The notes: generated by a model not told the origin, from the sequence alone. Positions 1-37,389 are shown, counted from the stretch's first letter. The stretch: 64,000 nucleotides of DNA from Candidatus Saccharimonadales bacterium (GCA_041742395.1 JBGSIS010000010.1:724-64723); one strand, 5' to 3'. A program made the numbers and translations.

Positions 1-24
1 TATATTTTATTACGAGCCTTAAGA

Positions 25-2118
25 GTGAATTCAGACGTAGGATTTATAATAGTATTATATTCTATCGGTTTGAGCATCATGATGCTGATAAGTATTGGTT
101 TGGCAATAGGATACGTTACGGACTTAACCAGTTTGAATATAGCGGTAATAACAAATATCTTTGTCGTGACTATGTGCTGGATAACAATAAAGCACGGCAA
201 TAGTAGACACTTAAATTTAAGAATATTACGAAGACAAAATTTTGATATTATGACGATTTTTCATATTGTTTTGCTTGTATTGATACCGTTATTCACAGTA
301 TTTGGCGCGATTCGATTAAATAACTACGGAAGCGAGCACATATCTTTGGTAGCGATACTTTTGATGATCATTAGTGCAATATCGGCATTGAGACTTAGTT
401 ATATAAAAAACAAAAATACTGCATGGGTATTTCCGGTGACTATATTTATTATTTCAATTTCGCTTTTATTTATGACATCGTTAAGAAGTAACTTAACACC
501 TGGTCATGACATAGTTCAGGAATTGAGAGTAGCAAATGCAACTATTATGGATAGCAAGTGGAGTCCAGGCAATTCTATCGAAGATGCTTACAATGCTTGT
601 CTAAGTATTTCTCTACTTCCAGGAATATTACATGTAGCTACAGGCGTTTCAACAATTCTAATATTTAAGGTAGTATTCCAGATTATATTCGCCGGAGCTG
701 TGGTCGGTATATATTATTTTCTGAAAAAATTTAATAAGAATAATTTGGCATTTCTTTCTACTATTCTATTTATCAGTATTCCGACGTTTTTTATTGATCT
801 ACCTATGATTAATAGACAAGAGATTGCGCTGTTCTATTTTATATTATTGCTAATTGCTCTCTTTGATAAAGGTCAAAGACTAATATTAAAAAATATACTT
901 GTCTTGAACTTTGCTATAGGGATAGTCATATCTCACTACTCAACTACGTATATTGCGGTGGCAACTCTATCACTAGCTTTTATAATCAGTAGGCTCTTTG
1001 TCATACTAAAAATATTCAAAAATACATCTATAGATAGATCATCGATAGTCAATCTTCCATTAATATGTATCATGCTCCTATTTTCTATATTGTGGTATGG
1101 ACAAATCACTCAATCAAATGAAAATATCCAAAAGTTTATAGGGTCTTCAGTTGTAAATATAAAATCAGCATTGAAAATTAGTGATAATAACGAAAATAGT
1201 TCTATTAGTGGATTTAATAATATAAGTTCGCCAGAAGCCTTCGATCTGTATAACGAAAGATTAATTACCAAAAGTCCACCTGATGCACTTATTAAAAATA
1301 AAGCTGTTGCACTAGTGGATAACAGCATAGGATTTCAGGCTGCACAATATCAGCCCATTAACGTTAACCAGGGATTAGTCAGTAATATTAGTAAAATAAT
1401 AAATGTCCAGATATTCATGATAAAAATTTTCATAGTAGTTGGTGTCATATATCTTTTTATTAGGAGTATAATTAAATCCGAAAATATAGATTTTCTAGCT
1501 TACGTTTTAGCGGCTTTCTTAATACTGGCTATAACTGTAATTTTCCCAGCACTTAATTCAAATTATGGTTCGACTAGAGTCTACCAGCAATCTTTGATTT
1601 TACTTGCGCTGCCCGCGGTAGTCGCTATGAACTATCTTTCGAGCTTAATTTTAAAGAAGAATAGCATCATCGGGCCAGCGCTGTTTGTATTGTTATACTT
1701 TTCTCTAATGACTGGGTTTATAACCCAGATTACGGGTGGTTTTCAAGCTCAGATTAACTTAAACAACACAGGTGTGTATTTTGATAAATACTATGCACAC
1801 AAATCGGAGCAAATTGCGGGATATTGGATATCAGGAGTTGACTATTCGGGAGATACGATTCGCGTTAATGCCGACCCATCTACCACAACTAGATTACAAA
1901 ATTATTCTACGCTTCCACTCTCATCTTTCGATAATGACTTAGCTCCACCACTTATAAACAAAAATTCGTACGTATTCTTCGGTTATACAAATAGTGTAAA
2001 AAATATTGCTCTTACGTACTATAAGGGTAAACTCTTAATATACTCTCTTCCTGTTGAGTTTTATGAAAATAATAAAAATTTTATCTATAGTAATGGCGAA
2101 TCTAGGTTCTATAAATGA
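25..2118 (+). CDS. Large polytopic membrane protein, putative GT-C-like glycosyltransferase/polymerase of a surface-glycan locus
   Basis: 697-aa ORF with many (>10) hydrophobic helices followed by a soluble C-terminal part. Its TGA stop overlaps the ATG of the next GT4 gene (ATGA at 2115-2118). Function is assigned from architecture and context only. Confidence 0.5.
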   Translation: MNSDVGFIIVLYSIGLSIMMLISIGLAIGYVTDLTSLNIAVITNIFVVTMCWITIKHGNSRHLNLRILRRQNFDIMTIFHIVLLVLIPLFTVFGAIRLNNYGSEHISLVAILLMIISAISALRLSYIKNKNTAWVFPVTIFIISISLLFMTSLRSNLTPGHDIVQELRVANATIMDSKWSPGNSIEDAYNACLSISLLPGILHVATGVSTILIFKVVFQIIFAGAVVGIYYFLKKFNKNNLAFLSTILFISIPTFFIDLPMINRQEIALFYFILLLIALFDKGQRLILKNILVLNFAIGIVISHYSTTYIAVATLSLAFIISRLFVILKIFKNTSIDRSSIVNLPLICIMLLFSILWYGQITQSNENIQKFIGSSVVNIKSALKISDNNENSSISGFNNISSPEAFDLYNERLITKSPPDALIKNKAVALVDNSIGFQAAQYQPINVNQGLVSNISKIINVQIFMIKIFIVVGVIYLFIRSIIKSENIDFLAYVLAAFLILAITVIFPALNSNYGSTRVYQQSLILLALPAVVAMNYLSSLILKKNSIIGPALFVLLYFSLMTGFITQITGGFQAQINLNNTGVYFDKYYAHKSEQIAGYWISGVDYSGDTIRVNADPSTTTRLQNYSTLPLSSFDNDLAPPLINKNSYVFFGYTNSVKNIALTYYKGKLLIYSLPVEFYENNKNFIYSNGESRFYK

Positions 2119-3386
2119 GTAGAATAGTATTATTTTCGGATTTCTTCCCCCCCCATATACGGGGGGGAGCAGAAGTAAGTACAAGTTTACTCGCCAAGGA
2201 GCTTGTTAAATATCATCATGTTGAGGTGGTTACTTCTAAACTAAGTAGTTCAGACTGGAAATGGAATAGTATCACCATTCACCCTATACTTTCAAGGAAT
2301 GAAATTAAAAACAAAAATGCGTTTAGTCTATTGAAATATGCGATTGGTATCATTGTGCTACCAATATTAAATACTTACCGAATACATAAATTCTTAAAAT
2401 ATAATAAATTTGATGTTATTAATTTTGTTCCAACTTCTTATGTTAGCTTTCCAATGATTATTTTAGTGATCATTTTTAGTCGAAAAATTAGGATAGTAAT
2501 TGATGCTCGGGACTATACGTTAATATGCATATCTGATTTTAACAATAATAGTACGTGTAAGTTTGAACACAGACATAAATGTACGAGTCACATTAATTCT
2601 TTATATCAAAATGATAATCGTTTAATCGGACTACTACAACCCCTAATGGGACTTTACGAGGTTACAATATTCAATATATATAAAATCACACTTAGATTCA
2701 TCATTAATAATGATAGCAAGGTGCGTGTTGTAGCTCTATCGGAGTATGTAAAAAAACAACTTACAAATAATGGCTATAACAAAAATAAAATTGAAGTAAT
2801 TAATAATATTGCTGAAACTAATGATGAAAACAAACGCGACCAAAGACAGGCTTTGAGTTATGATTTCATATATGCAGGCAGACTCGAAAAGCCAAAAGGC
2901 ATATGGGATGCTATCCATGCTTTCGAACAATTAAATATGCCAAATATCAATTTTGCGATAGCTGGTGATGGTGCTGAGTATAATTTAATAAAAAAATATA
3001 TAAAACAGAACAATTTAGATAATATTATTCTTCTCGGTAAACTTCCTCCAGAAAATATAATTGATCTTTATAAAAAATCAAAATTTGTATTAGCCCCAGT
3101 AAAAAGACCAGAGCCCTTTGGTAGATTTATACAAGAAGCGTCTATAGCGCAAACACCTATAATTGCTCCAAACATTGGCGGTATTCCCGAAGCTTTATCT
3201 GATGGCATATCAGGATTTTTATATGATCCAACTCTATCTAAAGGTTTGCTAAAAACGCTTTCAAAAGCATCTAATATCGATGGATTAGAGTTAAGTAAGA
3301 TGCAGAATAAAATCGGTAAATTATCCGTTAAATATTCCCCTTCTTTTATATATGAAAAAAGAATCAAAACATACTTTGATATTTAA
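2115..3386 (+). CDS. Glycosyltransferase, GT4 (GT-B fold) family
   Basis: 423 aa. N-terminus FSDFFPPHIRGGAEV (typical GT4 PP..GG.E start). C-terminal EPFGRFIQEA...GGIPE nucleotide-sugar pocket-like motif. Contains the C8/G7 tracts at 2147-2167. Confidence 0.85.
   Translation: MSRIVLFSDFFPPHIRGGAEVSTSLLAKELVKYHHVEVVTSKLSSSDWKWNSITIHPILSRNEIKNKNAFSLLKYAIGIIVLPILNTYRIHKFLKYNKFDVINFVPTSYVSFPMIILVIIFSRKIRIVIDARDYTLICISDFNNNSTCKFEHRHKCTSHINSLYQNDNRLIGLLQPLMGLYEVTIFNIYKITLRFIINNDSKVRVVALSEYVKKQLTNNGYNKNKIEVINNIAETNDENKRDQRQALSYDFIYAGRLEKPKGIWDAIHAFEQLNMPNINFAIAGDGAEYNLIKKYIKQNNLDNIILLGKLPPENIIDLYKKSKFVLAPVKRPEPFGRFIQEASIAQTPIIAPNIGGIPEALSDGISGFLYDPTLSKGLLKTLSKASNIDGLELSKMQNKIGKLSVKYSPSFIYEKRIKTYFDI
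2147..2167 (+). repeat. Homopolymer pair C8 (2147-2154) - ATATAC - G7 (2161-2167), mutually complementary
   Basis: Read directly: TTC CCC CCC CAT ATA CGG GGG GGA encodes F-P-P-H-I-R-G-G at codons 11-18 of the GT4 gene. Confidence 0.95.
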
Positions 3387-3417
3387 AGAATACCCAATTG
3401 TATTTGATACTCGAGAC

Positions 3418-4605
3418 TTATAGAGAATTAACAACAGAAGATAATTCATCTATCGTTTTGATGAGACTAAACTCTTTTTCAATAAATATTCTAGCGTTTT
3501 TTCCGTATTGTTTTCTAATCATAGGATTCTCGAATAAATATAACATAGCACTTTTTAATTGTTCTATATTACGCTCTTCCACCAAAATTCCTGTCTTGCC
3601 ATCAATCAAGCCTTCACTAATCCCACTATGTCTCGTTGAGATTATGGCTAATTCCAACGAAGACGCTTCTAGTAACACGACGGGGAGTCCTTCCATGTCT
3701 CCATTTTCAGCAGTAACACTAGGAACAACAAAAACAGTTGCTTCTCTCATTAGTTTAACTACTTCGGCAGTATCTAGGCCCCCGAGCAGTTTAATTTGGT
3801 CAGCAACACCTAAACTGTGTATAAGATTGGACAGTCTAGAATATAATGGACCACTACCGATAATATTATAATTTATAGATTTATCTCCTGAAAAACATTC
3901 CGCAAATGCTCTTATGGAATACTCGAAACCTTTTTTTTCTACCAACCTACCGACAGACAGATAACGTATACTATTAATTGGGTCTTTTACTGGTAGAAAA
4001 TAATCTGTATTTACACCCATTCGTAACACTATAATTTTATCTGATGGACAGCTTAGGCTAATTAATTTATTCTTCCAGAAATTTGATATGCATAGAATTT
4101 TATTTGACATTCTAAAGACATCTTCATATACATTACGAGGTTCTGATTTAAGAAATGCGGACATATCATGTCCATGAAATACTGATATGAGTTTAAACTG
4201 TTTCCCGAATCTTTTCATAGCCGCTGCCTTAATTGCGACCGGTCCGAAATTACAAATTAAAGTATCATTTTTATCTATTTTCAGATCCATCAAATAGGGT
4301 ATTTGAGTTAATAAATATAGATGGTACTTACTATTGAATTTGTAGCCAAACAATCTATTTACTTTTTTTAAATAGAATAATGAACATCTAGATAATGTCT
4401 TAAGGTTTTTTTTGGGGACTGGAGCCAATATAGTTTTTTTCTGAAGCTCTTTATTTTTGAAAATTGGTTGGGTTTGACCTTCGATATTCAGAGCTGTTGC
4501 AATAATATATACATCGTAGCCAAGATCGATTAGCCCAGATATTTGTTGTAAAATGAAAGTTTCAGATAATTTAGGAAAGTCTTCCGTTAAGAAATAAACT
4601 CTCAT
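3418..4605 (-). CDS. Glycosyltransferase, GT4 family (WcaL-like)
   Basis: 395 aa. Starts MRVYFLTEDFPKLSETF as in WcaL-type GT4 enzymes. C-terminal VPSVTAENGDMEGLPVVLLEA...TRHSGISE motif. Confidence 0.85.
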   Translation of the reverse strand: MRVYFLTEDFPKLSETFILQQISGLIDLGYDVYIIATALNIEGQTQPIFKNKELQKKTILAPVPKKNLKTLSRCSLFYLKKVNRLFGYKFNSKYHLYLLTQIPYLMDLKIDKNDTLICNFGPVAIKAAAMKRFGKQFKLISVFHGHDMSAFLKSEPRNVYEDVFRMSNKILCISNFWKNKLISLSCPSDKIIVLRMGVNTDYFLPVKDPINSIRYLSVGRLVEKKGFEYSIRAFAECFSGDKSINYNIIGSGPLYSRLSNLIHSLGVADQIKLLGGLDTAEVVKLMREATVFVVPSVTAENGDMEGLPVVLLEASSLELAIISTRHSGISEGLIDGKTGILVEERNIEQLKSAMLYLFENPMIRKQYGKNARIFIEKEFSLIKTIDELSSVVNSL

Positions 4606-5876
4606 TTTAATACCTTTTGGTGTAAATATTTAAAGTAAAATATAACTGCAATTCCTGCTCCAAGACTTTGACCAGATAACCAACCCAATGCAAGACTGGT
4701 GGGTTTGCCGTCATTCATAATATACACAAAAGACATTACTGCACCAAGAATAATAAAGTTCATTACCACCATTGCTTCTATGAGTTTTACGATATTCAGC
4801 ATCGTTCCAACTGTACTAATTATTGCGATAGGGATAGAAGATACAGCAAGTATAAGCATAGGAATGTATGACGTTTCCGAATATATTGAACCAAAAACAC
4901 TTAATATTGGTCGTCCTATAATTATTAATAATAATATGCTTGTAGTTAGTAGTGCTGTTATGAGTTTCAAAGATTTTGATTGGTGTTGTCTAATTTCTGT
5001 AATATTATGTGAACCTTCAGCAAAAAGCGATTTGTTTATTGATGACGGTATCATAAAAATGATTGAAGCAACTGAAAGCGCAATAAAGAAAAACGCTGAT
5101 TGAGTTGAACCAATCAAGCTAAATGCTACCAATGGGATAAACATGTTTGCCCCACTCGATGCAATGCCGGAAATATAGTTTCCAAATGAGTATTTACTAA
5201 CTCTTTTTAAAGACGTAAAATCAGGTTTTGCGAAGACTGATATATTATTTAACTTGAAGCCAGCAGTAGTTACTAATAAAGCTGCGATGTAACTACATGC
5301 GTAAACGAATATTATGGTGACAAAGTTGGAACTACTTAATGTGAATGGTAGTATGATCTTCGTAAGACCCATTAAGACGCTTTCAATAAGTATCCAGAAT
5401 GCGACCCTTTTCGCTATGAATACATTATCAGTAAATGCATTAACTGCAACAATATAAACTAAAACTACAAACGAAATAGCCCAAGCTGGGTTTGTCAGAG
5501 TATTTTTGAGATCTGGGGCGAAAAATTCAATACTATTTATAAAAATTGCACTTGTTAGGATTGTAGCCAACAGCACGGCTATGAGTGTCGCACTCATAAA
5601 TCGATTAGGACTTTTTAATTCTTTATAATAACGTATCACTGAATTATTTAGACCTAGTAGACTTAAGCTTGCAAGCAAAATAACGGAAGATATTAGAGCT
5701 GTAGCTGTACCAATTTGGTCGGGGCTAAACAATCTTGTATTAATTGCCCAAAATAAGAATCCCGCTGCCGATGCTATTAACATATTTAACAGGATATAAA
5801 TAGAATTTCTGTACAAACTATCATGCATAAAATGCCGATACATATTCATTGGTAATTGTTTATAGTCTTTTAGCAT
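4602..5876 (-). CDS. Polysaccharide/oligosaccharide flippase (MOP/Wzx-like)
   Basis: 424 aa, roughly 12 predicted TM helices with short loops. 4-nt overlap with the downstream GT4 gene. Confidence 0.7.
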   Translation of the reverse strand: MLKDYKQLPMNMYRHFMHDSLYRNSIYILLNMLIASAAGFLFWAINTRLFSPDQIGTATALISSVILLASLSLLGLNNSVIRYYKELKSPNRFMSATLIAVLLATILTSAIFINSIEFFAPDLKNTLTNPAWAISFVVLVYIVAVNAFTDNVFIAKRVAFWILIESVLMGLTKIILPFTLSSSNFVTIIFVYACSYIAALLVTTAGFKLNNISVFAKPDFTSLKRVSKYSFGNYISGIASSGANMFIPLVAFSLIGSTQSAFFFIALSVASIIFMIPSSINKSLFAEGSHNITEIRQHQSKSLKLITALLTTSILLLIIIGRPILSVFGSIYSETSYIPMLILAVSSIPIAIISTVGTMLNIVKLIEAMVVMNFIILGAVMSFVYIMNDGKPTSLALGWLSGQSLGAGIAVIFYFKYLHQKVLK

Positions 5877-5992
5877 ATTGTTATTAGCTTGCTTATTACA
5901 TCACAAAGTATTAAATTCACCCATGAAACGAATACAATAGTACAAGTGTTTAATCTTAGTATTATTATACTATCAAAATTACCCCTGTACAA

Positions 5993-7021
5993 TTGCTTAA
6001 GGTTACTGTTATTTACTGTATACCAAGTATAATTGATACTGTGAGCAATAAATCAAAAACTTTTATTCGCAGACTATTGGAGGTCTTTCTTTTTTTTATT
6101 TTGATATTCTATATAATTTACGCCTCTGCCCTGTTTGTACAATTACGACTATTTAAAATACTTATCAGCCCTACACCACAAGTTCTAATTATTAGCAGTT
6201 TAGTACTTATATTAATATCATTAATTTGGGCATTGATAGCCAAGAAACAAGGATTAATAAAAAAGTCTAGACTAGTGCCAGTTGTTATAATCGCTAGTCT
6301 TTTTGTTTCTTTGTTCTGCTTTATATTTACACTTACTATTCAATCAACTGCTCAAATTAGTGAAAGTGATGAAGTTATTAAGATCACATCTTATAACCGT
6401 CTTTATGAAACTGAAGATAATGATACTCCGGCTGCTTATATGAAAACCATTGATAGTGATATTATTAGCCTCCAAGAAGCGAGTACGCCAGATTATACGA
6501 AAACATTTGCTGAGAAAGTTGGTCATCAATATTATATACAAGCTCCAGATAACGATACTGGTCTAGTGAGCCGCTGGCCTATAACTGAGACAGAGGTACT
6601 TCAAAACGGTAGTAAACAAGTAATACGAGCGGAGATAGCAACTGATCAAGGTAATATAGCTGTCTACGCGGTTCATATAACTCCACCATTTACAGAAAGC
6701 ATGTACCGTGAAGGTTTAGTCGAATTAAAACAGCTAAGTGAATGGATTGCTGAAGACGAACTACCGGTTATTGTTGGTGGAGATTTGAATACTACAATCT
6801 ATTCACCTGAGATGCGAACTTTTACTAGTAGCCTAGCAAGTAAAATAAAACCAACTACTGAGCAGCGATGGCCACAGTGTAGCTGGTATGGACATGGTAG
6901 ACTGCAGTGCCTACGTATAGATTTTGTATTTATTCCTACGTCCAGTTTATTCGCAGATAGTGAAATATCTCCAGATTTAGGTTCGGATCACCGTGCTATT
7001 ACTGTTCAGTTTTCTCTTTAG
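5993..7021 (+). CDS. Membrane-anchored endonuclease/exonuclease/phosphatase (EEP) family protein
   Basis: 342 aa. N-terminal TM helices, then an EEP-like domain ending in GSDHRAITVQFSL (family-typical SDH motif). TTG start from the track; a downstream GTG (about 6043) is an alternative start. Confidence 0.7.
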   Translation: MLKVTVIYCIPSIIDTVSNKSKTFIRRLLEVFLFFILIFYIIYASALFVQLRLFKILISPTPQVLIISSLVLILISLIWALIAKKQGLIKKSRLVPVVIIASLFVSLFCFIFTLTIQSTAQISESDEVIKITSYNRLYETEDNDTPAAYMKTIDSDIISLQEASTPDYTKTFAEKVGHQYYIQAPDNDTGLVSRWPITETEVLQNGSKQVIRAEIATDQGNIAVYAVHITPPFTESMYREGLVELKQLSEWIAEDELPVIVGGDLNTTIYSPEMRTFTSSLASKIKPTTEQRWPQCSWYGHGRLQCLRIDFVFIPTSSLFADSEISPDLGSDHRAITVQFSL

Positions 7022-7958
7022 TCTTAGCGGTTTTTTTCGTTGGCGGAATTAACAGGTGCTTGTACATAATGAGCCAGAATGCTCCTGCATAAGCCATGAA
7101 GAATAGCATTCCCGCATAGGAGTGGAATAAACTAAATGCTAGTTCAATATTTATATGGTAGCCTGCAAGTATTAGTATGAATACTCTTAGGATATTTAGA
7201 AGAAACAGTATGAATAGGGCAACTGGGAAGACTAAAAAGAATCGTTTCTTGTTAAGCTTTTGCCAGTCTAAGATACCGACAATTGCATACAGTCCACTGA
7301 ATAGAGCTATGGATTCAATACCTGAGCAGTACTTCTCTACTGTCACTCCGAACTTATCTAGTATTATTGTAAGTTCCGGAACTATGGTTACTGTTAGTCC
7401 GGTTAAATCCAGTAGCCAGGCTACGGAATACAAAACTATAAATGCCAAGTATTTCCACAGACCATATACAACCAGTAGGAATAAGTAGAAAATCGCTGCT
7501 ATAACGAGAGATTGTACGATTTCTGTACGAAATTCAGTTATTAACTTCTTAATATTGTTAAATCCAAATACCGCAAGGGCTGCAAATACAATGCTTAGTA
7601 ACATCAACGCATGAGTAAGTATAATATTTGGTAATGTATTGTTGCCTTCAATGAGCTGACTGACCATTAACCAAGCGCTATGCGTTAATACCAGACTAAG
7701 TGCTAACCATCCTATTAAACGTCTGTCCCACTTCTCTAATTTAACATTGGTAATTTTGTTCCTTACAAGTAAAGCAAATGCTACTAAAGCGAACGCAAGG
7801 GCCTTACCTGCTCCGCCGTAAATAGCAAATCCATCACGATACAATATACCGTTAGATATTATTTTCGGGCCAATGATTCCGGTTATGAAAATACAAAGCA
7901 ATAAAAAAGCCACCAAACGAACCAATAAAGGCGGAATGGCGGCAATTTTTATTTTCAT
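6999..7958 (-). CDS. Exosortase/archaeosortase-family transmembrane transpeptidase
   Basis: 319 aa, about 8 TM helices. Contains EKYCSGIESIALF (Cys211, TGC codon on the minus strand at 7326-7328), then LLNILRVFILILAGYH (N..R motif plus His), i.e. the Cys/Arg/His signature of the EpsH/ArtA family. Adjacent to two genes with a matching C-terminal sorting signal. Confidence 0.75.
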   Translation of the reverse strand: MKIKIAAIPPLLVRLVAFLLLCIFITGIIGPKIISNGILYRDGFAIYGGAGKALAFALVAFALLVRNKITNVKLEKWDRRLIGWLALSLVLTHSAWLMVSQLIEGNNTLPNIILTHALMLLSIVFAALAVFGFNNIKKLITEFRTEIVQSLVIAAIFYLFLLVVYGLWKYLAFIVLYSVAWLLDLTGLTVTIVPELTIILDKFGVTVEKYCSGIESIALFSGLYAIVGILDWQKLNKKRFFLVFPVALFILFLLNILRVFILILAGYHINIELAFSLFHSYAGMLFFMAYAGAFWLIMYKHLLIPPTKKTAKTKEKTEQ

Positions 7959-7972
7959 TTGATCGAGAACTT

Positions 7973-8440
7973 CTAGCTTTGCATTTGACGTCGTCGTGAG
8001 TAAACTATTGCTCCACCTGCTACGGTTAGTGAGCTAATAGCGGCAATTGTACCAATTTCTGGAACTGCTACATCGATTACTGCAACGTTAAGCTTGGTAG
8101 TTATCTTAGAAGCATTACCAGTACTTGTACCACTCATACTATCTTTTACTGCAGATACAGTTATTTGTGATCCAAGCGGACAGTTTGAAGCTAGGAAGCT
8201 AACTAAATAAGAACCGTCTGTGTCTGAAGCAGTAGATTGAGTGTTGCTGTTACAAACAACTGAAACGCTTGCACCTGATACAGGAGTAGTGTTTTCGGTT
8301 ATATATCCGGTTACTTCAGTTCTGGCCGGATTTGGTACTGATTGTGCCGATGTTATCATCGGTATGGCTAGAATACTTAGCGCAAAAGCAAGTACTCCAG
8401 CTATTATAAGGCTTTTGAAATTACGAACAATGGTATACAT
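7973..8440 (-). CDS. Secreted CarboxypepD_reg-like protein with VPEIG-TM-RRR C-terminal sorting signal (putative exosortase cargo 1)
   Basis: 155 aa. N-terminal signal peptide ending ITSAQS. Body GASVSVVCNSNTQSTASDTDGSYLV. C-terminus AVPEIGTIAAISSLTVAGGAIVYSRRRQMQS (nt 7976-8065). SD AAAGGAG upstream. Confidence 0.7.
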   Translation of the reverse strand: MYTIVRNFKSLIIAGVLAFALSILAIPMITSAQSVPNPARTEVTGYITENTTPVSGASVSVVCNSNTQSTASDTDGSYLVSFLASNCPLGSQITVSAVKDSMSGTSTGNASKITTKLNVAVIDVAVPEIGTIAAISSLTVAGGAIVYSRRRQMQS

Positions 8441-8562
8441 ACTGAAACTCCTTTATTAAGCAACTCTTATTACTGATAGTACACCCATAGGTAAATATAT
8501 ACAACTTAGTAACTTGTATATTTAGAGTTTTGTGGTAAATATTACTTTTCTGGTATTTAGCT

Positions 8563-9039
8563 TTATGCTAAAGGAGAGTTCTGTAATGATTTTCGACGTA
8601 CGTAAACAATCGCTGCACCAGCAATTCCGACTGCTGCGATAGATGCAATTGTACCAATTTCAGGAACTGCCACATTAACAACTGCTACATTGAGTTTGGT
8701 GGTTACTTCATCTGCTGTTCCAGTACTTGTTCCACTCTTACCGTCTTTTGTTGAAGCTGTTACGCTAACTGATGATCCTTTAGGACATTTCTTGTCTTTG
8801 TATTCAACCCTGTATGTTCCAGAGTTGTTAGTTTTATCTGACTTGGACTTACCATTACAAACTACAGTAACTTTTGCATTTTTTATTGGGGTTCCGTTTT
8901 CTGAGATTACTCCAGTAACTTGTGTTTCACCTTTAGATTTTGCTGATACTGAAGCAGTAGGTATAGCAAGCAAGATAAATGCAATAACCATTAAAGCGAT
9001 AAGTAGTATTTTCTTAGTGTTTAGAACTTTAATTGTCAT
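8563..9039 (-). CDS. Secreted CarboxypepD_reg-like protein with VPEIG-TM-RRK C-terminal sorting signal (putative exosortase cargo 2, paralogue)
   Basis: 158 aa. Same architecture as 7973-8440. C-terminus AVPEIGTIASIAAVGIAGAAIVYVRRKSLQNSPLA (nt 8566-8667). The DNA of the signal is also conserved (gcaattgtaccaatttc[t/a]ggaactgc in both genes). Confidence 0.7.
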   Translation of the reverse strand: MTIKVLNTKKILLIALMVIAFILLAIPTASVSAKSKGETQVTGVISENGTPIKNAKVTVVCNGKSKSDKTNNSGTYRVEYKDKKCPKGSSVSVTASTKDGKSGTSTGTADEVTTKLNVAVVNVAVPEIGTIASIAAVGIAGAAIVYVRRKSLQNSPLA

Positions 9040-9134
9040 GTTGTGCTTTCCTTATTATGAAGTATTTATGATTGTTAGTATTATAATAAACTAACTTTAC
9101 TTTTTAAGCAATTTTATACTAAATTTAAATGTTT

Positions 9135-10601
9135 CTATGTTGGTGTGTCGATGGTATTGTTGTTCAGGTAATTCATGGCTTCAACTATTCTTGATAGTGC
9201 AGTCTCTTTGCCGATGGTGTTTAGGTATTCATCTAGTTTTGGACTAGATGGTGCCCAGGTGGTGGCAATTCTTATTAGACTAAATAGGACTGCTGGTTTT
9301 TGGTTGGTCTCTGTTAGTAGGTCGTTAAGTTCTTGGTTTAGATCTTCAATTGAGAATGTGCTGTTATTTAATTTTGACTGGGCTGCTTCTAATATTTCTG
9401 TAAGTTCTTGGTTTGTAAGTTTTTTTAGTTGTTTGTTGGTGCTAATTAATTCTTGGTTAATCTTCGGTTCTTCGAAATAGAAACTGACAAGATCTGGTAT
9501 TTCAGCGAAGTACTTTAGTCTCTCTTGGATGGAAGATAATACTTTTAATTTATAGTTGTCGTCGTGCTGTTTGGACGATTCTGGCCAAAAATCCTTAGTT
9601 TTTTCATACAGGTCATTAATATCCATTTGCCTAATTAATGATCCATTGGCCCATTTGAGTCTTTGTTCATCAAACCTAGCGCCACTTTTCTGGACTCGAT
9701 CTAAGCTAAACTTGTCTACTAATTCTTGCTTAGTAAAAATTTCTTGAGTTGTTCCGTCGTTCCAGCCTAAGGTTGCTATAAAACTGAATAGTGCCTCCGG
9801 TAAGTAGCCTTCCCTTACGTAGTCTAGGACATCTTTGGCGCCGTCACGCTTGCTTAACTTGCGGTTTCCTTGATCGGCCATAATATGTGGCATTGTGGCC
9901 ATGGTCGGAAGAGTTATTTCAAGTGCCTCATATAGGTTTAAATAGTTAGGAATACTGGCTAGAAATTCTTGTCCGCGAATTATGTGAGTAATCTGCATTT
10001 CGTGGTCATCGACAATATGGGCAAAATTATATGTCGGGTAGCCGTCTGATTTAATTAGAATAAAATCGTCAATAACTTCTGGTCCAGTAGATAATTTACC
10101 CATTACTTCATCATGCCAAGTATATGCTTTGGGGTCAGACTTGAATCTTAGTGGTGTTTTTCCGTCCCACTCTAGTGGATCGGTCGGGCGGTGATTACGA
10201 TAAAGGAATGGTTTTTTTGAGTTAATTGCTTCTTGTCGGAATTCTTGCACTTCCTCGGAACTATATGGGTCAGCGTAAGCCCTACCGGAGTCTATAAGAC
10301 CCTTTGCCCACTTTTGATATATTTCTAGGCGTTCGCTTTGTTTGTAGGGCGCATATGGACCACCAATGTCTGGACCTTCGTCATAGTCTAAGCCGATTGT
10401 TCTCAGACTTTCAATAAGATGTTCAGCAGAGCCAGCAACTTCGCGCTTTTTGTCGGTATCTTCAAACCTAAGAATAAATTCGCCATTGTTCTGTCTAGCT
10501 ACAAGCCAGGCAAACAAAGCGGTTCTTATTCCGCCGACATGTAAGTATCCAGTGGGACTGGGAGCAAATCTAGTTCTTGTCATCGGAGTAATTGTAAACA
10601 A
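9135..10601 (-). CDS. gltX: Glutamate--tRNA ligase
   Basis: 488 aa. RFAPSPTGYLHVGGIRTALF (HIGH region) and KLSKRDG (KMSKS region). Confidence 0.95.
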   Translation of the reverse strand: MFTITPMTRTRFAPSPTGYLHVGGIRTALFAWLVARQNNGEFILRFEDTDKKREVAGSAEHLIESLRTIGLDYDEGPDIGGPYAPYKQSERLEIYQKWAKGLIDSGRAYADPYSSEEVQEFRQEAINSKKPFLYRNHRPTDPLEWDGKTPLRFKSDPKAYTWHDEVMGKLSTGPEVIDDFILIKSDGYPTYNFAHIVDDHEMQITHIIRGQEFLASIPNYLNLYEALEITLPTMATMPHIMADQGNRKLSKRDGAKDVLDYVREGYLPEALFSFIATLGWNDGTTQEIFTKQELVDKFSLDRVQKSGARFDEQRLKWANGSLIRQMDINDLYEKTKDFWPESSKQHDDNYKLKVLSSIQERLKYFAEIPDLVSFYFEEPKINQELISTNKQLKKLTNQELTEILEAAQSKLNNSTFSIEDLNQELNDLLTETNQKPAVLFSLIRIATTWAPSSPKLDEYLNTIGKETALSRIVEAMNYLNNNTIDTPT

Positions 10602-13300: not shown

Positions 13301-14479
13301 TTAATTAAATATACCAGTAATTCTTTGCCATAAACTCGGTGCGTTACTAGGTATGACGGCTACTTGATCAGAAGCATCAGTTTGATTGGCGGTACTGGCG
13401 ACATTAGTTGTCGGATCGGGAGAAATTTGCTCACCGGTTACTAGTAGTCTTCTGAGTGAGGTTCCAGGAGGGTCACAGGTAATTAAAGTCATAGTGGATT
13501 TTTCTGTTGAGGTTGTTAGTACTGAAACGTCTGAGGGATCCACCACTTTCTTACCAGTAACTCGATAAACGAATCTTTTACTGTCTTTATTGAGATAAAA
13601 AGTGTCACCCTCTTCAAGTTCATTAAGTAGTACGAAGGCAAATTTATACTTCCCTTTATTTAAAATATTGTTACTGGAATGTCCGAAGATTACTCCGTTA
13701 CCAATTTCTCCTGGAAGTGGGGTTGTAGCGTAATGAACTACCCCCTGTTCTAGGGATTTTTGAATATCGTCTTCTTTAATTGAGGGTTGGTCGTAAACTA
13801 CAGGAATTTCAACATTAATTTTAGGTATTATTATCTTTGGTTCAGGACCGACAGCCGCCGTTGCTGGATCAATAATTATTGGAGTGTTGCTGACTGACTT
13901 ACTAGGGCTAACAAAAGGTGCTATAAATCTTTCGTTAAAGAATCCAAATAAGAACAAGACAAGCATAAATGAGCCTAGTCCAAGACCGAAGCCTAATGAT
14001 TTAAGATGTTGTTTGTGAGTAGGTTTGGAGTTAACGTTCCTAATTATTTGTCTTTTTATTTCTTTAGGATTTTTCAGAGATTTAACTTTGTGGACGGGAG
14101 TATTCTTGGTGTGTTTAGGGGCGACGTTATCTTCAGTTTCTTTTGTCTTTTGTTTTGCTGAGCTGTATTCTGATTGGTCCATACGGTTGTGCTCTGCATA
14201 AAACTCTTGCCAGACTTGGTGTTTTTGATCATCAGGCAAACTAACATAATATTTATGCCATTCAGTTTGTATGTCGGCCAACGATTTTCCAGAAGTACTT
14301 AGTTCATGCATGAATTGTTGATGTTTACTTCTGTGGGTTCCAGCTACTTCAGCTTCTTTAGATTCTTCTTCTGCGTTTGGTTCTTTTTTGTACAGATCTT
14401 CAATTTTGTGACGTATTAAATTAGCTGCGTCATTATTTGACGAGTTATTGTCGTTTGGTAAAGGATCGATTGTTTTCAT
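13301..14479 (-). CDS. Sortase-family transpeptidase (class E-like), membrane anchored
   Basis: 392 aa. Disordered N-terminus, TM (LGLGSFMLVLFLFGFF), catalytic-domain motifs VIFGHSS (His) and TLITCDP (TLxTC Cys) plus a downstream Arg (SLRRLLV). Confidence 0.8.
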   Translation of the reverse strand: MKTIDPLPNDNNSSNNDAANLIRHKIEDLYKKEPNAEEESKEAEVAGTHRSKHQQFMHELSTSGKSLADIQTEWHKYYVSLPDDQKHQVWQEFYAEHNRMDQSEYSSAKQKTKETEDNVAPKHTKNTPVHKVKSLKNPKEIKRQIIRNVNSKPTHKQHLKSLGFGLGLGSFMLVLFLFGFFNERFIAPFVSPSKSVSNTPIIIDPATAAVGPEPKIIIPKINVEIPVVYDQPSIKEDDIQKSLEQGVVHYATTPLPGEIGNGVIFGHSSNNILNKGKYKFAFVLLNELEEGDTFYLNKDSKRFVYRVTGKKVVDPSDVSVLTTSTEKSTMTLITCDPPGTSLRRLLVTGEQISPDPTTNVASTANQTDASDQVAVIPSNAPSLWQRITGIFN

Positions 14480-20392: not shown

Positions 20393-20992
20393 ATGACAGA
20401 CACCTATAGAATAGCCCTAAGTGGCGGACCGTCGGGCGGAAAGTCTACGCTACAGCGAGCAGTCTCCGAACAGATAGCTGAAGCTTACTGCGCTCCGGAA
20501 GTTGCAACAATACTGCTAAGCGGAGGCTTCCCGGCCCCTACCGAACAGCATCCCTGGGAAGAATCCTGGCAACGAAACTTCCAACTAGCAGTAGCTGCCG
20601 GCCAGGTTGCACTGGAAAATATAACCAACCAACGAGCAGAACATGAAGGTAAACGCCTAATAATATACGATAGAGGTTTGCTCGACGGTGCTGCCTACCT
20701 ACCGGGAGGAATACCAGAGCTTGAGGAAATAACCGGCCAAGACGAGCATGCTATGCTAGGTAACTACGACTCAGTGCTACACCTTACCACTTCGGCGGCA
20801 CACTCAGCATACAACAAGCGAAGCAACCCGCACAGATTTGAAGTAGCGGCAGCAGCGCTAGAGCTCGACCAGCGAATCATGGCAGCCTGGGATAATCACC
20901 CAAATCGCATAGTACTGGACGAACCCGACAAAGTAGAGCGAGTGGCACAAGGCTTGAACATAGCTAGAGCTCTGTTAGAGGGAGAAGTATAA
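20393..20992 (+). CDS. P-loop NTPase/kinase (AAA_28 / NadR-C-like)
   Basis: 199 aa. Walker A SGGPSGGKST, Walker B-like LIIYDRGLLDG. Confidence 0.6.
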   Translation: MTDTYRIALSGGPSGGKSTLQRAVSEQIAEAYCAPEVATILLSGGFPAPTEQHPWEESWQRNFQLAVAAGQVALENITNQRAEHEGKRLIIYDRGLLDGAAYLPGGIPELEEITGQDEHAMLGNYDSVLHLTTSAAHSAYNKRSNPHRFEVAAAALELDQRIMAAWDNHPNRIVLDEPDKVERVAQGLNIARALLEGEV

Positions 20993-21769
20993 ATGAAAGA
21001 ACATCGCCTACTTCCACTGCCTAACGATGCAGATATAGAAGTCCTTAACGCTTCAGTTTCGGAGCCAGAACTGGGCACACGAGTAGTACTTAAGACCTGT
21101 AAAGTAAGCATACCTGAAACAGTCATACAGGAGGCTAAGACTGAACTGGTAGCTAGACAAAGCTTAAAGTATACACCTGGTCGGGAAAGCTCACCGGAAG
21201 ACTACCCAAAAACCAGCAGACTTGCACAGTGGCTAGCTGCAGCTGTCTTAGAACCGTCCCATAGTGACCTATCATTTATACGAGCTACAGATAAAAGAAA
21301 GCACATCTATGCAGATAATCTCCACTTTGACTCAAGATATGTTGGCTATAGTGAGCGTCGAAATGTACGAGGTACATTCTGGAGACCAAGCAATTCCGTT
21401 GAAATCTGGCGGCAAATTATAAACTTGAACGACCAGTCAAGACATCTTCAGATCATAAACACACCGATAAAGGATTTAGAAAGTAGAGGCTTGGATATCT
21501 ACCAAGAACGACCTGTTGGCAGAGAGATTATAGGATGCCAGAACCCAACAGATATTCCGATTAGCATGCTAACAACATCTATTCCAGAGTCAGAAACTCA
21601 AGTCTATACAATACCTGCCTACGACGGCGACAACTTACCAGTTTTAGGGCTCTGGTCAAGCCGAGTCCTACATGCTGGAATAACTGCCAAAGATGGCCAA
21701 CTTATGGCTGCGTCAGCCAAGTGGGTAAAGCCGGATAAAAGAGATGAAGGAGGATACTATGCCAAATAA
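20993..21769 (+). CDS. Hypothetical protein (possible HxD...H cupin/dioxygenase-like)
   Basis: 258 aa. The start abuts the previous stop (TAAATG). NLHFDSRY and distal RVLHAG could form a 2-His-1-carboxylate triad; this is speculative. Confidence 0.4.
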   Translation: MKEHRLLPLPNDADIEVLNASVSEPELGTRVVLKTCKVSIPETVIQEAKTELVARQSLKYTPGRESSPEDYPKTSRLAQWLAAAVLEPSHSDLSFIRATDKRKHIYADNLHFDSRYVGYSERRNVRGTFWRPSNSVEIWRQIINLNDQSRHLQIINTPIKDLESRGLDIYQERPVGREIIGCQNPTDIPISMLTTSIPESETQVYTIPAYDGDNLPVLGLWSSRVLHAGITAKDGQLMAASAKWVKPDKRDEGGYYAK

Positions 21770-22514
21770 TGAAAAGCTATTGAGCATCCTGACGCCCGTA
21801 CTAGCAAATGATGGAACTCGGGAATTGCTGCCAGAGACTATAGCATCAGTTGAGCAGCAAGCCCTACCATCTGGCTGGAACTTGGAGTGGATCATCATGG
21901 AGGACGGCAAGGAGCCTGTCCTCGAAGACTACCCATGGCCAGATGTTGTTCACTATCGAAAGATTGAAAAACAAGTTGGTGAGCCATCAGCAAGGACACT
22001 TGCACTATCGATGGCAATTGGCGAGGTCGTACTGGCCTTTGATGCCGATGACACATTACCACCAGAGTCTTTACAGAAAATCTGCACCGCTTTTGATGAT
22101 AATCCAAGTGCCAAATGGGTTGCTGGTCAGGAATCAACTCCACGTCATCCAACACCCTGGATAAGCCAGAAAGATTCAAAGGATAATATAGAGGCTGGTC
22201 TATGCCAACCAGAAACAATTTACCCATTCTGGAAACGAACCGGACAGTTCCCAGTCACCTTCCAGTGCTCATACAAGACAGATTCTCTCTGGGAATATGG
22301 TGGCTATCCGGCAATGCCCTACAGCGGTGACATAAACTTACTGTTCGCAGTATCGAGTGTAGAGCCTGGAGTGGTACTGCACGATACTATCCTGAACTAC
22401 CGCAGATGGCCTGGACAAATGACTGCACAGAAAGAGTACTTCGCCGTAAAAGATCTATCGCACCAACACGCTGAAAAGTGGGTCCAAGCTGTTACTAGAA
22501 AGAGCAATTCATGA
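21744..22514 (+). CDS. Glycosyltransferase family 2-like
   Basis: 256 aa. LSILTPVLANDG...SVEQQ start and FDADD (DxD) motif. Overlaps the upstream gene by 26 nt. Confidence 0.65.
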   Translation: MKEDTMPNNEKLLSILTPVLANDGTRELLPETIASVEQQALPSGWNLEWIIMEDGKEPVLEDYPWPDVVHYRKIEKQVGEPSARTLALSMAIGEVVLAFDADDTLPPESLQKICTAFDDNPSAKWVAGQESTPRHPTPWISQKDSKDNIEAGLCQPETIYPFWKRTGQFPVTFQCSYKTDSLWEYGGYPAMPYSGDINLLFAVSSVEPGVVLHDTILNYRRWPGQMTAQKEYFAVKDLSHQHAEKWVQAVTRKSNS

Positions 22515-23416
22515 AAACTGAAGTTATTCGAGAATATGCTAGCGAACACAACATTGATTTAGGAGTCCCAGAACCGATTATACGGCGAAGTGACCCGCTC
22601 GATACAGCAGCCGGTGCTCACATACCAGCTCAGGGAGACATAGAATTATTTGTTGACCATCAAAACAAAATTGTATACAAGGTTGGAACGGAAGATAGGC
22701 TACCAAAATATAAACAAGACTATCGGGCGTTGACAGTAGCCTACAACGCAAGCATCGCTGTGCCTAGACCGATTGCTGAACCAAGTGTACACGGTAAATA
22801 TCTTGTTTACGGCTCAGAATACATTTATCACGATCCTTACGGCTCACCTTCACCCGAAGCAACCGGCGAAACACTGGCAGCACTGCATGACATCAAAGTC
22901 GACTCATTTGAAATAGCAACCAGTAAGCTGGGAATGCTAGCCAGTTTCGTGCTTACTCAATGCGAAATATCTGAGCAAACACGAGAGTCTATAGAAGAAA
23001 GATGCTTGCCATGCATATCGGTAGTTACACATGATATGGAAAATAATAATAGCTTGATTCATGGTGATGTGCACCTCGGTAATGTTCTTCCAACCATACC
23101 TAGACCAACACTTATAGATTTTGAAGATTCCGGTAAGGGCTCGCCGCTATGGGACTTGGCTGTTCTTGTGCAATCTGCCAACAGATTTGGACTAGACCCT
23201 ACTTGGGTAGAAACATGTCTTCAATCTTGGCAACAAGCAAGTCACAAAGACTTGACGAAAGAAACACTAGGAGAGTACGTAGATTGGCGGTATTGGTATG
23301 GTGCCCTAAGTATGATTAAACGTACCCAACATGAACCTAACCTTCTGCCAGAATTACAGACAAGGCTCAAATGGGTACATATTCCCATAGACCAATCAAA
23401 ATGGACACGCTGTTAA
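22511..23416 (+). CDS. APH/choline-kinase-fold phosphotransferase
   Basis: 301 aa. LIHGDVHLGNVL (HGDxxxxN catalytic loop) and LIDFEDSG. ATGA overlap with the GT2 gene. Confidence 0.75.
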   Translation: MKTEVIREYASEHNIDLGVPEPIIRRSDPLDTAAGAHIPAQGDIELFVDHQNKIVYKVGTEDRLPKYKQDYRALTVAYNASIAVPRPIAEPSVHGKYLVYGSEYIYHDPYGSPSPEATGETLAALHDIKVDSFEIATSKLGMLASFVLTQCEISEQTRESIEERCLPCISVVTHDMENNNSLIHGDVHLGNVLPTIPRPTLIDFEDSGKGSPLWDLAVLVQSANRFGLDPTWVETCLQSWQQASHKDLTKETLGEYVDWRYWYGALSMIKRTQHEPNLLPELQTRLKWVHIPIDQSKWTRC

Positions 23417-23499: not shown

Positions 23500-23589
23500 T
23501 GGCGGAGAGAGAGGGATTCGAACCCTCGAGACGGTTGCCCGCCTACACGCTTTCCAGGCGTGCCAGTTCAACCACTCCTGCACCTCTCC
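23500..23589 (-). tRNA. tRNA-Ser (anticodon GGA), CCA encoded
   Basis: Hand-folded on the minus strand. Acceptor GGAGAGG/TCTCTCC (one G-U pair), anticodon stem CACGC/GCGTG with loop CTGGAAA, 18-nt variable arm, T arm GAGGG-TTCGAAT-CCCTC, discriminator G, CCA. Confidence 0.9.
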
Positions 23590-35028: not shown

Positions 35029-37389
35029 CTAAAGAATTTGCTTTTTTGTAGCAAAGTTAAATGCAATGAATCCAGGTATGATTGGTACCCAAAAAGTAAT
35101 TAATCTATATAGTAATGACACACTAAGTCCGATGTCTGCAGGTATGCCTATCGATACAAATCCGGCTACAAGTCCAGCTTCGGCACCACCAATACCGCCT
35201 GGAGTTGGCGTAACGCTGGCAGCCGTCGCCCCAATTGTAAATACAAAGAATGCTTGAAGTATCGATATATCTACTCCAAGTGATTGAGCACAAACATATA
35301 AGCATAGTGCATAAAAGCTGGTAATACTCATGGCACTAATTAAAGCAAAGAAAAATCTATCAGGGTGTTCAAAAAGCTTAGTCATATCTTCGCGGATAGA
35401 CCGTATTATTCTCATTGCTTTTAATCTTAGTTTTCTGGTAAAAGTAATGGCAAGTATTAAAGAAAATACAACAATCACAGCGAAGAATACAACTTTTCTA
35501 GATACTGGAATCTTTACGACTTCTCTAAAAGAACTGCTACTAAGTCCGGCGACAATAAATAAAATACAAATATGGCCAATAAGCCCGACTAAGTTATTGA
35601 GGGCAGTTATTGAGGAAGCTTGAACAGTGTCATAGCCTACCTTTTGTAAGTATCTAATATTAGTTGCAATGCCGCCTGCACTGGCTGGTAGTAATCTATT
35701 TGTGAAGCTGGTACTTATTGTAACGAGTAGCGTCTTGAAATAGTTAATAGGTAAATACGATAGGAATTTATATACCCCAGCAGCCGATAAATATGTTGCT
35801 CCGGAAAGAGCGAAAGCCCATAATATGTATCTTGTATCGGCAGTTTTGATAGCATCCATACTGTCGGATAAATTACCTAGTTGGGGTATGAAAACATAAA
35901 GGGCTAAACCGAACATGACAGTATAAAAAACTGCTTTAGTATCTATTCTTTTAATTTTTGCTTTTTTAATCGTCTCTTTATTTAACTCACTTAAAATATT
36001 CTGTCTGATTTCTTGGAGTTTCCCTTTTTGTTGCTTAAGCAGTTTTGTTGTTGCTCCAGAAAGAGAAGCATAGTCTAGATAAGGATAAGCTAATTCTAAT
36101 TCTTTTTCGCCCATTATTTTTACTGCGGTTTTAATAACGTCTTTAGTATCTGCGATTACTGATAACGATGCTATTAGCTCGACCGTATCTCTATAGAAAC
36201 TGTGCTCTTCAACCGATGCTTCAGAAAATCCGAAGTCTATAATCCAAGGTTCATCTTGATCATCTATAAATATATTTGCGACTCTTAGATCCCGGTGAAT
36301 TATATTTGAGCCATGAAGAATTTTAACTTGTTTCCAGATGTTCTCCAGAATTTCTAAATTAACATTGTTAGGATCAATTTTATCCAAAGATTTTCCATCA
36401 ATCATTTCTTGAGCCATTGCCCACATATCTTCTTTGATATGGAATATACCCCTTATTTTGGGCGTTCTTACACCATTACTAAATGCTAAACCTGCAACAT
36501 AGGCTTCATGTTCTAGTTGGCGTTTTGGTGTCATGAAAGGTGCTTCGTCTTCAAGCCGTCTATAGATAACTTTTCTAGTTAGTTTGAATAGCCAGTCGGC
36601 TACGTTATTGCTGCTATCTACTACTTTTACGAATAGGTTTTTACCGTCTTTAACCTTAACGAAAAATGGAGTACTTCCTCTAGCATCAACTTTTGCTTTT
36701 TCAATATGAACTATCTTTAGATGTAGTACGGAAATCTTCTTTTTTATTAAAGAAGTTGGTACGTATTTTCCTTGAGTATCACCAAAAGCAAAATTCAAGA
36801 CACTAGATATTGCAAGTCCGACTCCAAACCCTCCAATAACATCAACTGGCAAGTGCATTCCCAAATATATTCTGGAAATACAAACAAGTATTATCATCCA
36901 GGTAATGTACTTATGGAATACTTTTGGAGTATATACATAAGCGATAGTTCCGAGTGCCGTGGCTACCGCCGCATGGCCTGAAGGATAGCCTACAATTGAA
37001 TCTAAGTTCTCTCTTAGTTGCACATTAGAAAGTATTTCCGAAGGTCTTAGCCTTGATTCATAAGTCTTTAGCCATTTAGTTATGACCCAGGCTAGTACAC
37101 CTGCTAGTAGGAATTTTGCAGAATGGGCATAGTGTCTTCTTAGTAATGTGGCTATTGTGGCTACAAAGACAAAACCTATGGTTCCGAATACTGAGATTAA
37201 GACAAAAATTGGCGCTAAAAAGCCCGGCAAACTATTAAAAAATCTAAATAAATAAAGTTCTAATGTACCTATACCGCTATCTACAAGGAGCTGCCCAAAT
37301 AGAAAAATAGATATACCTGCAGCTGCGTAAACAATATAAACTGGATTTCTATATGAATTTATTCTATGTTTCAGCGCTGTCTTTAACAT
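35029..37389 (-). CDS. Tri-domain fusion: PAP2 phosphatase - protein-kinase-like domain - lysyl-PG-synthase-type (flippase-like) TM domain
   Basis: 786 aa. Complete PAP2 signature K108x6RP, PSGH (136-139), SRx5Hx3D (172-183). Kinase catalytic loop IIHRDLRVAN (HRD 365-367) and DFG (385-387). C-terminal ~300 aa multi-TM region resembling the LPG_synthase_TM/UPF0104 family. Confidence 0.75.
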   Translation of the reverse strand: MLKTALKHRINSYRNPVYIVYAAAGISIFLFGQLLVDSGIGTLELYLFRFFNSLPGFLAPIFVLISVFGTIGFVFVATIATLLRRHYAHSAKFLLAGVLAWVITKWLKTYESRLRPSEILSNVQLRENLDSIVGYPSGHAAVATALGTIAYVYTPKVFHKYITWMIILVCISRIYLGMHLPVDVIGGFGVGLAISSVLNFAFGDTQGKYVPTSLIKKKISVLHLKIVHIEKAKVDARGSTPFFVKVKDGKNLFVKVVDSSNNVADWLFKLTRKVIYRRLEDEAPFMTPKRQLEHEAYVAGLAFSNGVRTPKIRGIFHIKEDMWAMAQEMIDGKSLDKIDPNNVNLEILENIWKQVKILHGSNIIHRDLRVANIFIDDQDEPWIIDFGFSEASVEEHSFYRDTVELIASLSVIADTKDVIKTAVKIMGEKELELAYPYLDYASLSGATTKLLKQQKGKLQEIRQNILSELNKETIKKAKIKRIDTKAVFYTVMFGLALYVFIPQLGNLSDSMDAIKTADTRYILWAFALSGATYLSAAGVYKFLSYLPINYFKTLLVTISTSFTNRLLPASAGGIATNIRYLQKVGYDTVQASSITALNNLVGLIGHICILFIVAGLSSSSFREVVKIPVSRKVVFFAVIVVFSLILAITFTRKLRLKAMRIIRSIREDMTKLFEHPDRFFFALISAMSITSFYALCLYVCAQSLGVDISILQAFFVFTIGATAASVTPTPGGIGGAEAGLVAGFVSIGIPADIGLSVSLLYRLITFWVPIIPGFIAFNFATKKQIL

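Follow-up and report, generated by a model that had tools for sequence, protein, structure and literature searches.

Analysis of a 64-kb stretch of DNA from Candidatus Saccharimonadales bacterium (GCA_041742395.1, JBGSIS010000010.1:724-64723; 64,000 nucleotides, called the window below) revealed two neighboring homopolymers, a run of eight C and a run of seven G residues, near the 5' end of a gene coding for a GT4 glycosyltransferase. The two runs are candidates for a hypermutable frameshift switch, or contingency locus, of a predicted surface-glycan enzyme. This reading was considered credible but unproven, with a probability of about 0.45, as the contingency-locus class requires demonstrated variation in tract length while the properties recorded here are the length, position, and over-representation of the runs and the class of gene that carries them.

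The open reading frame (ORF) at 2115-3386 on the forward strand begins with the codons ATG AGT AGA ATA GTA TTA TTT TCG GAT TTC TTC CCC CCC CAT ATA CGG GGG GGA GCA GAA, translated to MSRIVLFSDFFPPHIRGGAE, in which codons 11-18 encode FPPHIRGG. Positions 2147-2167 read CCCCCCCC (C8), ATATAC, and GGGGGGG (G7; Table 1), and an earlier note that had proposed a phase-variation switch at this site gave coordinates, codon numbers, and run lengths that all matched the sequence. Its GT4 label was likewise sustained, with three Pfam models above their cut-offs, namely PF00534 (96.2 bits, cut-off 26.4; 2e-27), PF13692 (67.8 bits, cut-off 27; 1.6e-18), and PF13439 (34.7 bits, cut-off 28.5; 2e-8). Membership of GT4 (CAZy GT4, GT-B fold) was judged by Glycos_transf_1 C-terminal and Glyco_transf_4 N-terminal models above curated cut-offs, the EX7E motif, and a Gly-rich N-terminal loop, all of which the product of ORF 2115-3386 possesses. 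The EX7E motif corresponds to E333...E341 (EPFGRFIQE) with both residues invariant in a 17-sequence family alignment, and P13, G17, and G18 of the N-terminal PPxxxGG motif are invariant in the 17 homologs, in line with the earlier view that the amino-acid motif at the runs is constrained. The closest solved structure was BshA (5d00; 1e-12), while no NCBIfam equivalog was found for the ORF. The start codon assignment is right, since homologs align from residue 1.

The spelling of this motif was anomalous for its surroundings. The G+C content was 32% for positions 2001-4000 and for the GT4 gene compared to 36.5% for the whole window, and no C or G run other than C8 and G7 reached 7 nt in the window, where the next longest had 6 nt. 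Codon usage over 61 non-overlapping ORFs (93% of the window) identified CCC (11% of Pro codons), GGG (7.3% of Gly codons), and CGG (4.7% of Arg codons) as the rarest codons for their amino acids, with TTC accounting for 32% of Phe codons. Only one of the 36 Pro-Pro dipeptides in the window was written CCC-CCC, namely P12-P13 of the GT4 enzyme, and three of the 95 Gly-Gly dipeptides were GGG-GGA; the probability of FPPHIRGG being spelled with both C8 and G7 under window codon usage was approximately 0.324 x 0.111^2 x 0.19 x 0.073 = 5.5e-5. When synonymous codons were resampled 3000 times in all 61 genes, runs of at least 7 nt occurred 0.49 times per window compared to the two observed, runs of at least 8 nt 0.14 times compared to one observed, and two G/C runs of at least 7 nt within 30 nt of each other in 0.2% of the resamplings (p ~0.002 per window). 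The run pair is therefore a real anomaly that is significant for a single window, although it is not overwhelming when many windows are scanned. Foreign codon usage was rejected as its source, as the G+C content of the GT4 gene lies below that of the window and G/C-rich codons are not its norm.

Comparison of the DNA at the motif in 24 distinct homologous segments plus the four nearest homologs (~28 genes, 27-45% identity) identified no C run of at least 7 nt, the maximum being C6 in two loci (L033 and L035), and G7 in a single gene, that of L027 (GGG GGG G, 29% G+C); both runs together were found in none of these genes. The contigs of the four nearest homologs have 43-59% G+C, which makes C/G-rich codons more likely in them, and they still use mixed codons at the motif. 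The claim of the earlier note that the all-C and all-G spelling is free of constraint was thus supported by the use of the rarest codons and by the absence of this spelling from the homologs. The family consensus is FPPYIYGGAE, and the window's H14 (CAT for consensus Y, TAT) and R16 (CGG for Y/K, TAC or AAA) each extend a run, while both residues also occur elsewhere in the GT4 family.

Runs were also counted over 234 genes (86,552 codons) from all non-redundant loci, which had been selected for GT4 genes. All four observed G/C runs of at least 7 nt lay within codons 1-30 of GT4 genes, compared to 2.4 expected from codon resampling, namely the two of the window, that of L027, and one in a different GT4 gene of L009, while gene bodies held none compared to 3.7 expected. 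These small numbers suggest an enrichment of runs at GT4 N-termini and provide a weak population-genetic argument for a switch. Within the low-GC loci, again chosen for GT4 genes, GGGGGGG was present at 2/32 N-terminal GG[AVDEG] sites and at 0/46 sites elsewhere, and counting the G7 of the window, which is in another register, gives 3/32 N-terminal sites. The runs in L027 (1175-1181) and L009 (3389-3395) were the only other G/C runs of at least 7 nt in 232 kb of fetched loci, and both are G7 tracts at the N-terminal Gly-Gly motif of a GT4 gene in very AT-rich genomes (29% and 27% G+C, respectively). The L027 gene is a homolog within the same GT4 family and that of L009 a different GT4 from a Nanoarchaeota metagenome-assembled genome, in which IGGV is encoded by ATT GGG GGG GTA. 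At this Gly-Gly motif, G7 tracts may reflect a hotspot or a switch site that recurs among GT4 genes.

The effect of slippage on the reading frame was determined by rebuilding the GT4 gene in silico with C6-C10 and G5-G9. A net change of -1 led to a stop after 20-21 residues (...EQK*) and a net change of +1 to a stop after 30-31 residues (...SRSKYKFTRQGAC*), such that the early truncation foreseen in the earlier note held while its position, placed there at about 12-17 codons, did not. No ATG, GTG, or TTG was present in the two other frames between position 2118 and the runs, and in frame, Met does not recur until residue 114, beyond the invariant GG loop. With an early stop and no rescue start, OFF alleles would be true nulls, and a polar effect is not expected because nothing downstream is co-transcribed. 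The combinations C9/G6 and C7/G8 restored the frame and kept three residues between PP and GG, replacing HIR by PYT or IYG. Such compensated alleles might be active, as the family tolerates many tripeptides at that place (YIY, HIK, YDR, NIK, and YVR in the alignment). A -1 ribosomal frameshift site was also considered and, on inspection, rejected because the stem formed by the two runs includes the C CCC CCC site instead of lying 5-9 nt downstream of it, and because this heptamer does not slip efficiently.

Campylobacter jejuni and Helicobacter pylori, the classic homopolymer switchers, are not known to have MutS/MutL-type mismatch repair. No evidence of MutS or MutL was reported for Saccharibacteria (Jaffe et al., PMC8406219), and the runs should therefore be hypermutable; no MutS was identified among the ten large ORFs scanned in these 64 kb of the genome. 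Under the standard bioinformatic cut-off, a G/C run of at least 7 nt marks a gene as putatively phase-variable; runs of at least 8 nt were experimentally validated in C. jejuni, and runs of 9-10 nt dominate in Campylobacter (PMC6321876), placing C8 and G7 within the length range at its low end. The runs also have a suitable position inside codons 11-18, from which all net +/-1 states stop at residues 20-31, and they are over-represented by codon probability and by resampling, modestly so since they were found by a scan. The example of Haemophilus that the earlier note gave for switching at poly-G/C runs of at least 7 nt was imprecise, as Haemophilus lipooligosaccharide (LOS) genes rely on tetranucleotide repeats for most of their switching. 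A literature search found no report of simple-sequence phase variation in Saccharibacteria or of homopolymeric tracts in Patescibacteria glycosyltransferases, and a gene with a hypervariable 9-mer repeat described in a paper on Gracilibacteria is a distinct phenomenon.

In the proposed switch, C8/G7 would be the ON length, and replication slippage by one base in either run would shift the frame and leave only a peptide of 20-31 residues (OFF), such that the sugar added by the enzyme would be missing from the cell-surface glycan, with the GT4 gene taken as non-essential. Reversal could occur at the same run or through a compensating slip in the other (C9/G6 or C7/G8), by which the frame would return with PPxxxGG spacing kept and HIR changed to PYT or IYG. 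Slips would go unrepaired without MutS/MutL and a population would always hold both ON and OFF cells, while the place of GT4 as last gene of its transcription unit should spare other genes any polar effect. Both slippage at a useful rate and selection for that slippage are parts of this scheme that we infer.

Several observations weigh against the switch. A large scan can turn up an event with a per-window probability of 0.002 by chance, 6-nt runs are not depleted in the window (five observed compared to 2.2 expected in the resampling), and the 64 kb hold no second candidate tract. The PP...GG motif is the easiest place for C and G runs to form, such that the 5' position is partly due to the protein motif, and G7 at the GG motif of the two other GT4 genes brings the count only weakly above expectation. 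C8 and G7 are short compared to the 9-10 nt runs that dominate in Campylobacter, known switches normally have a single run with no need of a second complementary one, and the lack of mismatch repair comes from literature on the phylum and not from this genome. No same-species sequence was present in the collections searched: exact look-ups returned no record of the GT4 protein or of the neighboring glycosyltransferase; a near-identical GT4 protein, including a frameshifted allele, was absent from 5.8 billion proteins (best match 45% identity); scans of genome_contigs and metagenome_contigs gave 34 loci, all with at most 42% identity and none being the same-species locus; and tblastn against a phage collection gave distant glycosyltransferase matches only.

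A neutral accident with no biological role is the main alternative and somewhat less probable than the switch. The PP...GG motif itself encodes an interrupted inverted repeat (CCNCCN...GGNGGN) that drift, or drift combined with a single template switch at the quasi-palindrome by which one arm was copied to the other, could have turned into a recent pair of runs that has not been purged. In each of the 24 homologous segments, four of the seven stem pairs follow from the Pro and Gly codons, and this explanation gains further from the single runs at the motif elsewhere (G7 in L027 and L009; C6 in L033 and L035), from a per-window chance that a large scan can attain, and from the want of a second tract in the window. 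Template switching is known to homogenize the arms of short imperfect inverted repeats, including those in coding DNA (PMC7202029; PMC8604942; PMC8794818), but it predicts complementary arms and not homopolymeric ones, and the TTC, CAT, and CGG flanks are also needed, all of which lengthen the runs. In a genome lacking MutS/MutL, C8 plus G7 in a useful gene would moreover be a constant source of null mutants that one synonymous change would remove, and the gene bodies of the sampled loci are devoid of such runs where 3.7 were expected. Runs of neutral origin would still slip, and the two explanations differ mainly on whether switching is selected.

The runs and spacer can fold into a 7-bp G:C hairpin as RNA or single-stranded DNA, as the earlier note had said for the mRNA, with RNA and DNA folding energies of -16.2 to -18.1 and -7.9 to -9.2 kcal/mol, respectively. 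It is improbable that this hairpin is the functional element, acting in mRNA or DNA to control GT4 translation or mRNA stability (for instance by ribosome pausing at the rare-codon Pro-Pro stretch or by sequestering the start region) with the homopolymers being incidental. Such a role would fit the strength of the local fold, the fold of the 121-nt region around the GT4 start, which surpasses 199 of 200 shuffles (z = -3.0) and pairs the start codon within an outer stem enclosing the hairpin, and the ATGA overlap with the upstream gene, where coupling could be structure-sensitive. However, the three free stem pairs did not covary in the 24 segments (81.0% paired compared to 79.4% when shuffled, a value reached by 125 of 500 shuffles), and in the centroid structure the hairpin is not confined to one register. 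The stem also begins 33 nt past the AUG, a position outside the initiation footprint. A conserved cis-regulatory RNA structure was thus rejected, as the free pairs were not above shuffled controls and Rfam returned nothing at the runs, its sole match in the window being a tRNA. An intrinsic terminator or attenuator was rejected as well, as the stem is followed by AGCAGAAGT with no U tract on either strand and no terminator-like site was identified on either strand of 1500-3900. The inverted repeat could instead raise slippage or have arisen as a by-product of template switching. A second, perfect 10-nt inverted repeat (GAAAATAATA and TATTATTTTC, 2065-2074 and 2128-2137) flanks the GT4 start codon with its arms 53 nt apart and could pair across the junction of the upstream stop and the GT4 start in the mRNA.

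Homopolymers and G:C hairpins are error-prone on several sequencing platforms and a related long-read-style contig (L036) has many fragmented genes, but a sequencing or assembly artefact in the run lengths (homopolymer miscalling or polishing) is very improbable because only C8/G7 keep the 423-codon frame open, any single miscall would break it, and the product can be aligned with homologs over its full length from residue 1 and carries the family consensus FPPxxxGGAE.

Table 1. Coordinates of the two runs, the GT4 gene, and neighboring genes in the 64-kb window.
Feature	Position	Strand	Details
GT4 (retaining, GT-B fold) glycosyltransferase gene, 423 aa	2115-3386	+	Pfam, EX7E, PPxxxGG; last of a two-gene + strand unit
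C8 homopolymer	2147-2154	+	last base of TTC (F11), CCC (P12), CCC (P13), first base of CAT (H14)
ATATAC spacer, hairpin loop	2155-2160	+	rest of H14, I15, first base of R16
G7 homopolymer	2161-2167	+	last two bases of CGG (R16), GGG (G17), first two bases of GGA (G18)
20-nt quasi-palindrome, halves CCCCCCCATA and TACGGGGGGG	2148-2167	.	inverted repeat, 9/10 positions complementary
DUF2206 polytopic membrane protein, upstream of GT4	25-2118	+	PF09971 at 8.5e-22
Convergent WcaL-like GT4 glycosyltransferase	3418-4605	-	PF00534 at 1.5e-33; TIGR04005 wcaL 1e-59, below cut-off
Polysaccharide flippase-like membrane protein (Polysacc_synt)	4602-5876	-	PF01943 at 2.6e-6
Exosortase-family protein beside the cluster	6999-7958	-	PF09721 1.6e-17; TIGR04178 above cut-off; TIGR04162 1e-22

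The genes surrounding the runs form a predicted conserved surface-glycan cluster of DUF2206, two GT4 enzymes, flippase, and exosortase (Table 1). The TGA stop of DUF2206 overlaps the ATG of the GT4 gene (ATGA at 2115-2118), suggesting translational coupling of the two. The order DUF2206, GT4, glycosyltransferase, flippase recurred in three other loci (L035, L036, and L042); a flippase gene follows the glycosyltransferase pair in L035 and L042, and an exosortase adjoins the orthologous cluster in L042. The best match of the window's exosortase was the VPEID-CTERM exosortase E model, and beside it are genes for two small paralogous secreted proteins (7973-8440 and 8563-9039, both on the reverse strand) that end in ...VAVPEIGTIA, a hydrophobic helix, and an RR(R/K) cluster, resembling VPEIG-type C-terminal sorting signals. 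A classical sortase is encoded nearby (13301-14479).

The glutamyl-tRNA synthetase gene (gltX, 9135-10601, reverse strand) had one match of 94% identity followed by a series of Saccharimonadales/Saccharibacteria sequences at 67-74%, from which the host was placed in Saccharimonadales (Candidatus Saccharibacteria, TM7). The nearest relative found through gltX, L037, shares 94% amino-acid identity in gltX and 85% nucleotide identity over the syntenic blocks. Beside gltX it lacks the glycan and exosortase region (window 1-9100) and has DUF3048, histidine kinase, and response regulator genes there instead, and no G/C run of at least 7 nt was present in 21 kb of L037. Because different genes adjoin gltX in this relative, the glycan cluster is a variable low-G+C island in the lineage of the window, specific to strain or species. 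An otherwise identical sequence, L039, differs from L037 by two 1-nt indels (3121-3130 and 5400-5410; an A5/A6 run and A/AA) that split or fuse the DUF3048 and histidine-kinase genes, and these may be assembly errors or real frameshift polymorphism and are uninformative.

Further along the window, a four-gene block at 20393-23416 with 44-45% G+C compared to 36% for the window encodes an AAA_28 protein, an unknown protein, a GT2 glycosyltransferase, and an APH-type phosphotransferase. The block borders a tRNA-Ser gene (23500-23589, reverse strand) and resembles a horizontally acquired islet. An unusual 786-aa fusion of a PAP2 phosphatase, a partial protein kinase, and a lysyl-phosphatidylglycerol-synthase-type membrane domain is encoded at 35029-37389 on the reverse strand.

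Attached to host bacteria, Saccharibacteria face host defenses, phages, and, in animals, immunity, with their surface glycans probably being central to attachment. If the locus switches, these ultra-small bacteria would share the bet-hedging trick of Campylobacter and Helicobacter, and a genome-wide census of G/C runs could predict which surface structures are varied; if it does not, the runs are a codon-usage curiosity only. A real switch would extend a known kind of locus to another phylum, with an unusual layout of paired runs. The bolder proposal, by which the Candidate Phyla Radiation would have its first simple-sequence contingency locus, with two complementary runs providing both ON/OFF states and PYT/IYG enzyme variants and the hairpin raising slippage, is a long shot.

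Three known systems offer comparisons. Quasi-palindrome template-switch hotspots share with this site a short inverted repeat in coding DNA with one mismatch (9/10 here), and the PP...GG motif supplies the imperfect precursor whose arms that mechanism makes complementary (PMC7202029; PMC8604942). These hotspots are a mutational process and not a functional system, and they predict neither homopolymeric arms nor reversible switching. The LOS and capsule glycosyltransferase loci of C. jejuni (wlaN, cgtA, and cj1420-class; PhasomeIt) are similar in having an intragenic G/C run of at least 7 nt that turns expression ON or OFF by frameshift and stands out in an AT-rich genome, and the lack of mismatch repair noted above for C. 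jejuni has its counterpart in that reported for Saccharibacteria (PMC8406219). Most Campylobacter runs measure 9-10 nt, and on the coding strand nearly all are poly-G with 5% poly-C (PMC6321876), compared to C8 plus G7 here. C. jejuni also has tens of such loci per genome with demonstrated variation, compared to one locus in 64 kb known from sequence alone. The Neisseria lgt genes (lgtA, lgtC, and lgtD with poly-G; lgtG with poly-C) and H. pylori futA/futB likewise have their homopolymer within the 5' portion of the glycosyltransferase ORF. In these genes (poly-C near the 5' end in futA/futB), one sugar addition is switched and a surface glycan epitope altered. Their enzymes are GT25/GT8/GT2-like and GT10 whereas that of the window is GT4, and their single, usually longer runs (~8-17 nt) have no described complementary partner, in contrast to the C8 plus G7 pair. 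Neisseria and H. pylori are host-associated Proteobacteria and Campylobacterota, whereas the candidate switch described here belongs to the Patescibacteria.

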